In this document: piece after piece, positions 470 to 4,488 of the stretch | Layout of the letters: each line of letters opens with the position of its first letter | How positions within the stretch are numbered: the stretch's first letter is position 1 | Virus record (IMG/VR): IMGVR_UViG_3300035696_000755 | DNA length: 10,079 nucleotides | DNA from: a virus | Strand: one strand, 5' to 3' | The notes under the pieces: model-generated | Databases searched by the model: none | The model's input: only the letters and a program-made list of their open reading frames with translations | What the model was told of the DNA's origin: nothing | Made by a program: the position numbers and the translations under genes

Positions 470-528
470 TGAAAAAATTTTCCTGATTTACTAGCCAAAA
501 CGTCGGTGCAGCCGGTATACTGTGTGTA
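470..528 (+). promoter_or_regulatory. sigma70-like promoter with UP-element A-tract (aaaaaatttt), -35-like TAGCCA (492-497), 18-bp spacer, -10 TATACT (516-521), predicted TSS ~527. Conserved module CTAGCCAAAAC-N12-GGTATACT.
   Basis: Almost the same module recurs at 4425-4488 with identical spacing. It sits 16-25 nt upstream of the GGAGAG RBS (528-533) and ATG 544. Confidence 0.5.
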
Positions 529-543
529 GGAGAGAAAAACCTC

Positions 544-3060
544 ATGCAGCTTGGAACCCAAGGCACCGACGCAAAGATTGCTGGAAATGCTTCCGCACCA
601 TCCAGCTTCAAGATTGCAGCCTCTACCGTCACCTTCGAAATCCTGTCCAGCGGCTTGTACGGCGATAAAGTTGGAGCCGTTATCCGCGAACTGTCCTGCA
701 ATGCATGGGACGCTCATGTGGCGGCTGGCAAGCCCTACGAGCCCTTCGAGATTAACCTTCCCACCCAGTTCAATCCCATCTTCACCGTCAAGGACTACGG
801 CACCGGCCTCAAGTTCGTTAAGGGCGGATGTGAGACCTGCCACGGCACTGGCAAGCTGGCTGCTGACATTGCTTGCGACGACTGCAACGGCACGGGCGAC
901 TATGACGGCGTGATGAGCCTCTACTGCACCTACTTTGCCTCGAACAAGAACCAGAGCAATGAGTTCATCGGTGCTCTCGGTCTTGGCTCCAAATCGCCCT
1001 TCGCCTACACCAACAAGAAGGCTGGCGATGGCTCTACACAGTCGGGCGGCTTCACGGTCACCAATCGCTACAACGGTCGCACCTACATCTACACAGCCAT
1101 GGTCAAGAATGGATTCCCGACCGTGGTTCCGATGCAGGTACTCGACACGCCGGGTACTCCGAACGGTCTGGAAGTTTCCTTCCCGGTTGACCGTCGCGAC
1201 ATTTGGGAGTTCGAGAACAAGGCTGCGAACGTTTTCGAGTTTTTCCAACCGCGTCCGAAGTTGAACAAGCCCATCACTATCAGAACGCCCACCTACTCGG
1301 TGAAGACTGCTCAGTGGGGTATGCGTACCGATGAGGATACCGCACAAGGCGATGGTCTCCGGGCGATTCAAGGCAACGTGCCCTACAGCGTCGGCAACAT
1401 CGACCAGAGCCGCTTGAGTGAGGCTCAGAAGAAGCTGGTCTCAATGCCCATCGACCTGTTCTTCAACATTGGAGAACTGAGCGTGGCCGCATCACGCGAG
1501 GCTCTGCAACTGGACGACAAGACCATTGGCAACATCTTGGGACGGTTGGACGTTGTGCAGGAGAAGCTTCTGGAGGAAGTCAAGAAGAAGGTTGATGCTT
1601 GCAAGACAGCGTGGGAAGCACGGCTCAAGATTCACGAGTTGACCATGCAGACCGGCATGGGCAGTCTGGTCAACGACGCCTACAACCGTGGGTTGCTGAA
1701 TGGCAAGTACAGCTTCTTCAAGCTGGAGGGAGATTCCAAGACGGTTGGCGGGTTCAAGGTGGTTGTCAACGAACTTGACTACTTGCACGTTGAACTGCTC
1801 TCCTTCCGCTACTGCGACCGCCGCAATGCGAAGAAGTCGAAGAAGGAACCTGTCTTCGAGTTCGCAACCCCCACCAAGAGGGCACAGGCTCATCGCGATT
1901 TGGGCTCGAACATCACCGAGAAGAAAGACTACGACATCAAGCTGGACGTGAGCGAGAACGTAATCTTCGTGATTAACGACCTCAGAACCAATGCTGACAA
2001 GTACGTCAGCTACATGCTCCAGAACGACGACAGGAGCAACACCTACCGCACGGATGCAGCGGGTAATGTTCGCCGCAAGGCATTGGTGATTAACCGGCTG
2101 CGTCGTAACAGCGATATGGTGCTGGCAGGTAACGAGGCTGTCGCCATGCTCGACCGCATCGGCAACCCCCCGGTGGTCAAGGCATCCGACCTCAAGGCAG
2201 CATTCGACCCGCTGATGAAGGCTGAGAAGGCAGTACAGGTTGTCAAGCGTGAACGGATGAACGTTCGTCTCCTGCGTCGGTATGCTGAGCACACTCGGCG
2301 TAGCTCGGGCGGTGGCTGGAAGAAGCAGTGGAGAAACGGTGACGACAACGAGACGCTCAACGACCCCACGGCGACCAAGTTCTACGTGCTGATTACTGGG
2401 CACCCGACCTTTGAACCCACCAACCTGCCGGGATTCTACTATGGCAGCAACTTCATCGCTTTCGTGAACAAGGTCCGCGATTCCAACCTGTTCCCGGAGA
2501 TTGGCGAAAGCACCCCGGTGTTCGGCATCAAGGCTGGCTCCAAGCTGCTCTCAGACCCACTCTTTGTGGAGTTCCTGCCCTTCGTGAAGGCTCGGGTAGC
2601 CACGACCATCACCCCGGCTAAGGAAATGGAACTGAGCCTCGCTGTGAAGCCGTTCTCTTCGAACTGGAAGAGCATCATGGAGTACGTGGCTGAGCATCCT
2701 CAACTGCTGACAGTGGACAGCCCGTTCCGCCAGTTCTCGCTGGCAATCTACAAGGCGGAACACGCCGACCGGGATGGCCACAGCAATCTGGTAACCCTCG
2801 CCAACGCACTGGGGATTGCCATCAACAACACCGCCGACTACAATCAGGCATGGGCAAAGGTGATAAAAAATTACCCAATCCTGAAAATTTGTAACCGAAA
2901 CACCTACGGTTCTGGTACACTGGAAGAGAAGACTGTTCTGGTGGACTACATCCGGCACACTGATGAGCAGAACAAACGGTTGGTTCTGTCCGATGTCCGA
3001 GTGGTAACCGACGAAACCGCAACCGAGACCGAAGATGAAGAGGAGACCGTCAATGTCTAA
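544..3060 (+). CDS. GHKL (Bergerat-fold, Hsp90/MutL/TopoVI-B/His-kinase type) ATPase, 838 aa, with a double CxxCxGxG zinc-knuckle insertion in the ATP-lid. The large C-terminal region is unassigned.
   Basis: N-box IRELSCNAWDA (nt 682-714) fits ExxxNAxDA. G1 box VKDYGTGL (787-810) fits DxGxG. G2 box GALGLGSKSPFAY (970-1008) fits GxxGxGxxS. CETCHGTG and CDDCNGTG (829-852, 874-897) lie between G1 and G2. The RBS GGAGAG is 10 nt upstream of the ATG. The protein ends in an acidic tail (TETEDEEETVNV). Confidence 0.75.
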   Translation: MQLGTQGTDAKIAGNASAPSSFKIAASTVTFEILSSGLYGDKVGAVIRELSCNAWDAHVAAGKPYEPFEINLPTQFNPIFTVKDYGTGLKFVKGGCETCHGTGKLAADIACDDCNGTGDYDGVMSLYCTYFASNKNQSNEFIGALGLGSKSPFAYTNKKAGDGSTQSGGFTVTNRYNGRTYIYTAMVKNGFPTVVPMQVLDTPGTPNGLEVSFPVDRRDIWEFENKAANVFEFFQPRPKLNKPITIRTPTYSVKTAQWGMRTDEDTAQGDGLRAIQGNVPYSVGNIDQSRLSEAQKKLVSMPIDLFFNIGELSVAASREALQLDDKTIGNILGRLDVVQEKLLEEVKKKVDACKTAWEARLKIHELTMQTGMGSLVNDAYNRGLLNGKYSFFKLEGDSKTVGGFKVVVNELDYLHVELLSFRYCDRRNAKKSKKEPVFEFATPTKRAQAHRDLGSNITEKKDYDIKLDVSENVIFVINDLRTNADKYVSYMLQNDDRSNTYRTDAAGNVRRKALVINRLRRNSDMVLAGNEAVAMLDRIGNPPVVKASDLKAAFDPLMKAEKAVQVVKRERMNVRLLRRYAEHTRRSSGGGWKKQWRNGDDNETLNDPTATKFYVLITGHPTFEPTNLPGFYYGSNFIAFVNKVRDSNLFPEIGESTPVFGIKAGSKLLSDPLFVEFLPFVKARVATTITPAKEMELSLAVKPFSSNWKSIMEYVAEHPQLLTVDSPFRQFSLAIYKAEHADRDGHSNLVTLANALGIAINNTADYNQAWAKVIKNYPILKICNRNTYGSGTLEEKTVLVDYIRHTDEQNKRLVLSDVRVVTDETATETEDEEETVNV

Positions 3061-4387: not shown

Positions 4388-4420
4388 CGGGGGAGCCACA
4401 TGGCTCCCCCGTACTTTTCT
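4388..4420 (+). terminator. Rho-independent terminator 2: 10-11 bp perfect stem (C)GGGGGAGCCA / TGGCTCCCCC(G) followed by TACTTTTCTCG
   Basis: A near-perfect palindrome sits at 4388-4411 and is followed by the same ACTTTTCTC tail as terminator 1. The two hairpins are in tandem. Confidence 0.65.
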
Positions 4421-4424
4421 CGAA

Positions 4425-4488
4425 AAAAGTTCAAAAAATTTGCCAAAAAACTAGCCAAAACCTCTCGGTCGCAGGTATACTATGGATA
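4425..4488 (+). promoter_or_regulatory. second copy of the conserved promoter module (A-tract aaaaaattt; CTAGCCAAAAC 4451-4461; -10 TATACT 4476-4481)
   Basis: The 11-mer and the GGTATACT element are identical to those at 491-521, with identical 12-nt spacing. It lies immediately upstream of the Ku ORF. Confidence 0.5.

Follow-up and report, generated by a model that had tools for sequence, protein, structure and literature searches.

A probable promoter class ahead of rIIA and Ku in uncultured huge phages of peat and soil

The virus record IMGVR_UViG_3300035696_000755 of IMG/VR is a complete Joint Genome Institute (JGI) metagenome contig of 10,079 bp, called the window below, which carries two copies of a short sequence module, one in front of a homologue of the phage gene rIIA and the other in front of a gene for Ku. 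Together with a weaker version at 2891–2921, these two repeats probably represent a clade-specific promoter, of the kind used by multisubunit RNA polymerases of the bacterial type, in a group of uncultured huge phages, known from contigs of 156–432 kb from peat and soil. Promoter function appears well supported by comparison with related sequences, and the module would provide a new promoter consensus for this clade that acts like the strong early promoters of other phages, a familiar kind of signal.

The module and its occurrence

The first-pass annotation of the window had singled out an 11-mer and an 8-mer shared at equal spacing, and both are present as described: CTAGCCAAAAC is found at 491–501 and again at 4451–4461, followed in each case by 12 nucleotides (N12) and then by GGTATACT, at 514–521 and 4474–4481. 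A search for this pattern with up to three mismatches on both strands of the window returns exactly these two sites, and no match was found in 200 dinucleotide-preserving shuffles. The shared aaaaaattt tract that had also been reported occurs at 472–480 and 4433–4441, starting 19 and 18 nt, respectively, before the C of CTAG and hence with a register that is off by 1 nt, and ungapped similarity between the copies extends over 60 nt (465–524 against 4425–4484) at 70% identity. The sigma-70 geometry proposed at the same time is recovered by a consensus scan, which gives TAGCCA-18-TATACT with 9 of 12 matches at both sites. The TAnnnT form of a -10 hexamer is found at both and is kept by variants of the motif, whilst TAGCCA agrees with TTGACA at four of six positions, at an 18-bp spacer, and forms part of a conserved block that is 11 bp long and extends 3' of the normal hexamer.

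The transcription start (+1) is defined here as the seventh base past the -10 hexamer, and the promoters, terminator and genes of the rIIA-rIIB-Ku region lie on the plus strand. In the rIIA promoter a distal A/T block, AAAAAATTTTCC at 472–483, would occupy -56 to -45 as the distal subsite of an UP element and is followed by a degenerate version of the proximal A5 block (TGATTTA, 484–490). The -35-region box CTAGCCAAAAC (491–501) then spans predicted positions -37 to -27, with TAGCCA at -36 to -31, and the extended -10 element, GG plus TATACT at 514–521, places its hexamer (516–521) at predicted -12 to -7. Before Ku, an A/T block at 4423–4450 contains three A6 tracts beginning at 4423, 4433 and 4445; here AAAAAATTTGCC takes predicted positions -55 to -44 and AAAAAA -43 to -38, which gives a distal and a proximal UP-like subsite. 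The core of the Ku promoter follows at 4451–4481, with CTAGCCAAAAC at -37 to -27, N12, and GGTATACT at -14 to -7, the hexamer lying at 4476–4481. A weight matrix built only from copies outside the window and its near-orthologues scores 61.6 bits at 4451, 50.9 at 491 and 1.7 at 2891, with all other positions of the window at or below -14 and a best score of -3.5 in 100 shuffles.

The exact 19-base pattern is present in 13 stretches of IMG/VR contigs and in 46 metagenome stretches, mostly from peatland samples and on contigs of up to 332 kb, and with up to three mismatches allowed the family comprises at least 71 distinct copies, on peat and soil phage contigs of up to 432 kb. On dozens of related phage contigs the module has a uniform orientation and stands directly 5' of genes, the products of which include rIIA, Ku, a CCA-adding enzyme, a DinG-like helicase, an ATP-dependent DNA ligase, a PARP-like ADP-ribosyltransferase and small unknown proteins; no structural gene was found among the 12 products scanned. 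A profile of 62 copies, numbered from the C of CTAG, reads AAAWAWTTTYC at -18 to -8, AAAAA at -5 to -1, CTAGCCAAAAC at 1–11 and GGTATACT at 24–31. Across these copies CTAGCCAAAAC is nearly invariant and positions T1, A2, T3 and T6 of TATACT are invariant in 62 of 62, whilst the N12 spacer is variable, becoming C-rich toward the GG, and the bases corresponding to +1 to +6 hold little information. As a check on selection bias, IMG/VR was rescanned with the -10 relaxed to TANNNT, and TATACT was again present in 12 of 12 matches, preceded by GG in ten, GA in one and CG in one. Freeing the 11-mer and keeping the A/T block and the -10 revealed no alternative box in IMG/VR, the matches being the locus L009 and two AT-rich, chance-like sequences.

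Amongst 185,579 species genomes (596 Gb) the exact pattern, with its 19 fixed bases, gave three matches against about four expected by chance, and only the one in a metagenome-assembled genome (MAG) of Terracidiphilus (Acidobacteriota) has the flanks of the family. Those in Caldilineaceae (with L021) and Phycisphaeraceae are without the flanking blocks and were treated as unrelated. Phage isolates gave chance-level matches only when searched by blastn with the 61-nt promoter, and a megablast of the whole window against 50,697 phage records gave none at all; a literature search for the 11-mer led only to unrelated papers. The motif was not found in the first 200 kb of Tunturi 5 (PP885688), a 309-kb Tunturiibacter phage that is the sole isolated Acidobacteriota jumbo phage available. 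This stretch (L066–L069, 1–200000) has no GTATACT on either strand, in a genome of 58% GC, which suggests that Tunturi 5 avoids sites containing GTATAC. The huge phages LR756500/501 share a vault-like gene with the present clade, but have a GC content of 24–32%, lack the motif and have no rIIA, rIIB or Ku nearby.

Two of the family contigs carry further features of note. An array of 14 tRNA genes is found at 4505–14637 of L003, which fits a huge-phage lifestyle. On the minus strand of L004 a family promoter with leaderless geometry (near 6300) precedes a gene whose 501-aa product has PARP catalytic and regulatory domains and recalls the T4 ADP-ribosyltransferases that modify the alpha subunit of RNA polymerase.

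Spacing to translation signals and the rIIA, rIIB and Ku loci

The strongest evidence pointing to a promoter lies in the spacing between the module and the translation signals behind it. An ATG or GTG that opens a reading frame of at least 40 codons is located N5–N7 after the -10 hexamer in 32 of the 71 copies (24 at N6, seven at N5 and one at N7), and a GGAG-type Shine-Dalgarno sequence coincides with the predicted +1 in 21, with the start codon 15–23 nt past the -10, so that 53 of 71 have one or other signal at the predicted start. Such 1-nt-precise spacing would not be expected of a module that merely needed to lie upstream of a gene, and therefore argues for a promoter role.

The same arrangement is kept at orthologous loci. 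Five further lineages (L070–L074) were collected by homology to rIIB and not by the motif; they have 58–64% protein identity and 43–56% GC, and their contigs are of 20.8–405 kb, with the same rIIB sequences recorded on contigs of up to 432 kb. All five share with the window the gene order rIIA-rIIB-Ku ... ATP-grasp ... vault-like gene. In each of them the sequence before rIIA reads (C/G)GTATACT-N6-AGGAGA(G/T)A and that before Ku reads (C/G)GTATACT-N6-ATG, and when the window is included both N6-AGGAGA(G/T)A and N6-ATG are found in six of six. The box is more variable in the five lineages (GTGGCTAAAAA, GTAGCTAGATT, TTGTTCGAAAA, TTGCTCAAAAC, TTAGCCATTTG, CTACCCAAAAT and others), and the consensus from these lineages, which were not selected by motif, is nT(A/g)G(C/t)CAAAAn. 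When 18 promoters are compared, conservation is best at T2, C6 and A7–A10, and G4 is found in 10 of 18, a pattern that matches the TnGnCA skeleton of a putative -35 hexamer followed by an A-run. The original suggestion of a class-specific promoter is supported by the recurrence of the module in one orientation 5' of genes and by its retention at the rIIA and Ku orthologues of five lineages.

Two starts had been offered for Ku, a leaderless one at ATG 4488 and a long-leadered one at ATG 4590, and the first of these is strongly favoured. ATG 4488 begins at the seventh base past the -10, as does the corresponding ATG in all six lineages. In an alignment of six Ku N-termini the 34-residue extension before the canonical Ku start is conserved as protein (..KPQlSTAPAEK..), whereas Met-35 of the window protein, encoded by ATG 4590, is replaced by G, P, I, F or V in relatives. 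Because the spacing and the extension are conserved and Met-35 is not, the predicted Ku mRNA is leaderless, its first base being the A of ATG 4488, from which translation would begin; the start at 4482 in the list of open reading frames (ORFs) lies 5' of this predicted transcript. Across the clade the length of the N-terminal extension varies between 30 and about 57 residues, that of the window having 34 (encoded by 4488–4589), and it includes a near-invariant ..KPQ(L/I)STAPAEK.. motif which is lacking from typical bacterial Ku proteins. A single-protein query of IMG/VR found no relatives of Ku.

A third, degenerate copy that had gone unnoticed in the first-pass annotation lies inside the 3' end of rIIA, 5' of rIIB. 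It consists of A/T tracts at 2865–2890, GTAACCGAAAC at 2891–2901, N12 and GGTACACT at 2914–2921, and its predicted start, at about 2928, is 125 nt before the rIIB ATG. This is the third-best weight-matrix match in the window and scores above all 100 shuffles, and it sits in one of three GC dips in the left half of the window. Between 2862 and 2913 the sequence hardly differs from that of the 83%-identity orthologue L027, in which the site has the form GTAGCCGAAAC-N12-GGTACAAT; a 60-nt alignment window over the copy reaches an identity of 0.93 to L027, which is one of several such peaks in the divergent part. Corresponding copies are found in L070 and L074, as GTAGCCTAAAT-N12-GGTAcTAT and GGTAgTAT, respectively, and are absent from L071–L073.

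These promoters would divide this part of the window into three transcription units. In the first, the rIIA promoter (P1) would drive rIIA and rIIB from A528, the mRNA beginning at its Shine-Dalgarno sequence AGGAGA with a predicted 16-nt leader (528–543) that is unstructured (ΔG -2.1) and ends at ATG 544. Gene 1 (544–3060, 838 aa) is a homologue of rIIA (PHROG 612, E = 2.8e-108), with about 36% identity by tblastn to rIIA of T4-like phages, and its stop codon is overlapped by the start of gene 2 (ATGTCTAA). The latter (3053–4318, 421 aa) is a homologue of rIIB, residues 5–234 of which match PHROG 609 (E = 4.8e-59), and it has a C-terminal helix-turn-helix (HTH) domain of the XRE type (residues 321–371) as well as an acidic tail. 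The rIIA-rIIB unit is closed by a strong intrinsic terminator at 4388–4420, again missed at first, with a 10-bp stem of which nine are G-C pairs and a T-rich tail; its hairpin (4388–4411; ΔG -23.7 kcal/mol, z-score -5.5) lies directly 5' of the second promoter copy, and equivalent hairpins 5' of the Ku promoter can be read from the sequences of L070 and L071. In the second unit, the weak internal promoter in the 3' end of rIIA would provide a separate start for rIIB, as in T4. In the third, past the terminator, the Ku promoter (P2) would drive Ku (4488–5465, 325 aa; Pfam Ku, E = 2.9e-31) and the genes behind it from A4488, with the AUG itself at the 5' end of the message. The mRNAs from both strong promoters would consequently have almost no 5' untranslated region (UTR).

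A further hairpin at 5482–5503, after the Ku stop codon, has a ΔG of -27.4 kcal/mol and a z-score of -6.0 with a short UUU tail only; lying between Ku and the gene that follows, it could act as a weak terminator or serve to stabilise the RNA. Among the other genes of the window are those for an R2K ATP-grasp protein, for a PTH2-like protein and for the C-terminal portion of a vault-like protein that has an MVP shoulder domain. Two long ORFs overlap in different frames (6190–6558 and 6296–6694), in an acidic stretch with a strong skew of A over T, and this could reflect a frameshift, an assembly error or a genuine overlap. No Rfam family was found in the window and three loci, and no tRNA adjoins the motif. 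Three genes receive a corrected annotation: rIIA for gene 1, a fusion of rIIB with an HTH domain for gene 2, and a start at 4488 for Ku.

A second promoter class is found before the vault-like gene (MVP shoulder/Vault_3) in L006, L047, L071, L072 and L074, with the form AAAWTTTTYCACA-N8-10-TTGCA(A/G)-N17 followed by TAACGT, TACAGT or TATAAG. Its A/T block is similar to that of the module and its leader is of about 40–55 nt. Because the core differs behind a similar A/T block, the CTAGCCAAAAC/GGTATACT core appears to be class-specific. In the window, 9631–9680 matches L006 as far as TAACGT plus 1 nt and then jumps to codon 523 of the 800–870-aa vault-like gene (ATG 9680), so that the leader and the N-terminal two-thirds of this gene have been lost through a deletion of about 1.6 kb.

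It is scarcely credible that the repeats are instead recombination or mobility modules, akin to the promoter/stem-loop cassettes that have been proposed to shuffle genes in phages of the T4 type, or that they are products of chance or of assembly. As stretches of about 50 bp that recur in identical form at scattered places in related genomes, the modules could serve as substrates for homologous recombination, and hairpins precede some of the copies (the second of the window and those in L002, L005 and L057), yet neither the strict orientation nor the precise spacing to start codons and Shine-Dalgarno sequences is explained in this way. When compared with L027 over 1636–4645, the window is also mosaic, with about 75–85% identity up to about 3700, inside rIIB, and 97–100% from there through the Ku promoter, which suggests a recent recombination junction within rIIB. 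The junction is, however, not at a module. Chance is excluded by the shuffles, both of the pattern and of the weight matrix, and an assembly artefact by the recurrence of the module across independent samples and assemblers.

For a soil phage clade of 150–430 kb without a cultured member, the analysis offers a testable transcription map with promoters, predicted starts and operon boundaries. According to this map, many of the pre-replicative messages of the clade, a large share in all, would be leaderless or begin with the Shine-Dalgarno sequence. The 50-bp module is specific enough to be used in searching peat metagenomes for related phage contigs, and it may serve as a strong portable promoter in Acidobacteriota, for which genetic tools are scarce.

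Candidate factors that read the module

The polymerase that uses these promoters is taken here to be that of the host, with a factor of the sigma-70 family, acting on pre-replicative genes. The blocks AAAWAWTTTYC (-56 to -45) and AAAAA (-42 to -38) together look like a complete UP element, to which the C-terminal domains of the alpha subunits would bind. The UP consensus of Escherichia coli, NNAAAWWTWTTTTNNNAAANNN, spans -59 to -38, and the profile AAAWAWTTTYC-nn-AAAAA (-56 to -38) is in register with it to within 1 bp; the binding of the alpha C-terminal domains is predicted. The box CTAGCCAAAAC, with its -35-like TAGCCA (TnGnCA) at 18-bp spacing, would be read by sigma region 4, and the GG at -14/-13 and TATACT at -12 to -7 would complete the core. 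Taken together, the UP-like block, the TAnnnT hexamer and the TnGnCA box favour a bacterial-type polymerase that has alpha C-terminal domains and works with a sigma-70-family factor, and the early promoters of T4 are a precedent for ample extra consensus in phage promoters that the host reads (PMC2988021).

Several points weigh against this assignment. Every start site is placed by geometry, the -35-like hexamer has only four of the six bases of TTGACA, and GG replaces the canonical TG of an extended -10. The sole lead to a host is one contig of the Terracidiphilus MAG, and since Tunturi 5 is without the motif in the 200 kb examined the module is not a general Acidobacteriaceae consensus. Moreover, the 19 near-invariant positions of the window subclade, and the invariance of GTATACT, including the non-critical positions -10, -9 and -8 and the G at -13, in lineages of 43–56% GC, both exceed the known needs of sigma-70 and would fit a dedicated phage sigma factor or activator.

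The last two points belong to a reading that is unlikely overall, although it deserves to be taken seriously, in which the element is still a promoter but its box at -37 to -27 is recognised by a phage-encoded sigma factor or by a MotA/AsiA-like activator that replaces the -35 contact, and in which the genes would form a middle rather than an immediate-early class. GTATACT is kept in 12 of 12 orthologous promoters, and L072 retains only TCAAAAC (-33 to -27) of the box, so that the conserved part is centred near -30 in the manner of a MotA box. In T4 this box lies 12 ± 1 bp from the -10, and the MotA-dependent promoters listed include PrIIA, PrIIB1 and PrIIB2 (PMC2988021). The conserved CAAAAC of the present module ends 14 bp before the hexamer instead, and the positions kept in the lineages that were not selected by motif follow the ordinary -35 pattern TnGnCA. 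That the same phages hold a second promoter class with a better sigma-70-like -35 (TTGCAA-N17), and that the species genomes yielded a single family match, would also be in keeping with a dedicated factor.

Candidate genes for such a factor are found beside Ku in two lineages. L070 and L074 encode a sigma-70-region-4 protein of 200–220 aa just after Ku (13150–13755 and 13299–13961, respectively) and a GerE/LuxR-type HTH protein from a gene inserted between rIIB and Ku (11564–11908 and 11316–11843), whilst the window lineage has neither gene at the positions flanking Ku. No homologue of sigma, MotA or AsiA was found in the window or in the approximately 380 kb of family loci, and the window proteins scanned, from an incomplete genome, gave no MotA- or AsiA-like match; the genomes are fragmentary and the absence of a factor gene is therefore weak evidence either way. 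A phmmer search of all ORFs of the loci with E. coli RpoE, RpoD regions 2–4 and Bacillus subtilis SigW, together with both sigma factors of Tunturi 5, returned nothing below E = 0.08. When 138 representative ORFs were scanned against Pfam, Sigma70_r4_2 was matched twice, and matches of this kind were traced in two proteins to the HTH of a resolvase and to a generic N-terminal HTH.

A different line of evidence comes from a chromosomal cassette. At 3659–5039 of L015, in the Terracidiphilus MAG, the exact promoter stands in leaderless geometry (N5) before a conserved cassette of three genes, the products of which are an unknown protein of 108 aa, a dual-specificity phosphatase and a serine resolvase. 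It is also present in L020, L028, L029, L031, L035, L038, L039, L041, L045, L050, L062 and L063, in varied and bacterial neighbourhoods that include type I restriction-modification genes, DndB-like, GIY-YIG and RmuC proteins and a multihaem cytochrome, and it could be a mobile host element that shares, or has borrowed, the phage promoter. A phage factor would normally be absent from such bacterial defence-island contexts, which argues against a module that depends on one. The cassette can be accommodated by supposing that the module is the site of a factor or sigma specific to the huge-phage clade, and not of the host primary sigma alone, in which case the copies in presumed Acidobacteriota hosts would be phage-sensing switches that remain silent until infection; this is considered improbable.

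In the first-pass annotation, the protein of gene 2, with its HTH, had also been put forward as an obvious candidate for the regulator of both sites. The domain itself is real, and part of the claim stands in this respect. An AlphaFold2 model from a 29-sequence alignment predicts residues 321–371 of rIIB as a four-helix bundle (predicted local distance difference test scores of 88–94), and Foldseek matches this bundle to XRE-family regulators, HigA2, DdrO and 434 Cro with root-mean-square deviations of 1.6–3 Å over about 50 residues. The Pfam HTH_31 match in gene 2 is sub-threshold and a sequence search of the C-terminus against PDB chains gave nothing significant, the HTH being visible only by fold search, whilst 35 of the 44 homologues found, some with as little as 34% identity, cover the C-terminal extension. 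That rIIB should have a DNA-binding domain is surprising, its function being still obscure.

From this domain it does not follow that the shared sequence is an operator, at which the gene 2 protein would repress or activate both units including its own, and such a role is very unlikely. A DNA-binding role is plausible in view of the modelled fold and its spread amongst rIIB homologues, and the weak third copy of the module does lie 5' of gene 2, but the protein is a homologue of rIIB rather than a stand-alone regulator and nothing links its HTH to the box. HTH proteins of the XRE type normally bind dyad-symmetric sites as dimers. No inverted or direct repeat is formed by the 11-mer, by the 8-mer or by the two together; the palindromes GTATAC and CTAG to which attention had been drawn do occur, and are the only ones, but they are incidental, and both are broken in functional-looking variants (GGTACACT, GGTACAAT, GGTACTAT, CGTATTAT, GTAGCC.. 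and CTAACC..), whilst TAnnnT is kept. In addition, the exact motif would drive the phosphatase-resolvase operon, around which tblastn found no rIIB in the 1.3–13.5 kb retrieved, and promoter geometry by itself explains both the conservation pattern and the spacing to start codons and Shine-Dalgarno sequences.

Comparison with known promoters and leaderless messages

Many positions of the module are highly conserved across its copies, a property shared with the middle promoters recognised by gp28 of SPO1 and with promoters of the T7 type. The latter consist of a contiguous block of about 23 bp that runs into the transcript, whereas in the module a variable 12-mer separates two blocks and positions +1 to +6 vary as well; the contiguous block from about -17 to +6 that marks the site of a single-subunit, T7-like polymerase is not seen in the profile. 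In contrast to the SPO1 and T7-type systems, no gene for a phage sigma or polymerase was found in the sequence available.

The predicted leaderless or Shine-Dalgarno-first messages also set the clade apart from AR9 and phiKZ, the two jumbo phages in which transcription starts have been mapped. The mapped starts of AR9 give UTRs of 26–491 nt (PMC5312081), and none of those of phiKZ is leaderless (PMC8244752). A parallel is offered by phage lambda, the cI gene of which is expressed from PRM as a leaderless mRNA with the start codon at the transcription start. As at PRM, the start codon here is at the predicted start, 7 nt past the -10. The difference is that the arrangement is systematic, in 32 of 71 copies and in six of six lineages for Ku, with starts that are inferred.

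Within the rII region itself, the degenerate internal copy resembles PrIIB1 and PrIIB2 of T4 in being a secondary promoter for rIIB with a box that ends some 12–14 bp 5' of a sigma-70-type -10. Those promoters lie inside the 3' end of rIIA, as the third copy does here. The box of the window, however, bears no relation to (a/t)(a/t)(a/t)TGCTTtA, the internal copy does not make a class of its own but belongs, in degenerate form, to that of the main promoters, and homologues of MotA and AsiA were not found amongst the sequences scanned.

A near counterpart is the T4 early promoter, a so-called 'uber' promoter that combines UP, -35, TGn and -10 elements with extra consensus and is read by the host polymerase (PMC2988021). 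Both types occur in many copies per genome 5' of pre-replicative genes, including rIIA, where they presumably out-compete the promoters of the host (PMC2988021), and both have a consensus that goes beyond the two hexamers, with A/T-rich, UP-like blocks 5' of the -35. The module differs in having CTAGCCAAAAC in its -35 region in place of a near-consensus sequence of the TTGACA type, in having GG for TG and invariably TATACT in place of TATAAT, and in its fixed spacing to the coding region, which would leave either no leader or a Shine-Dalgarno sequence only. The module would work like an early promoter of the T4 type, but is not a member of that class by sequence.

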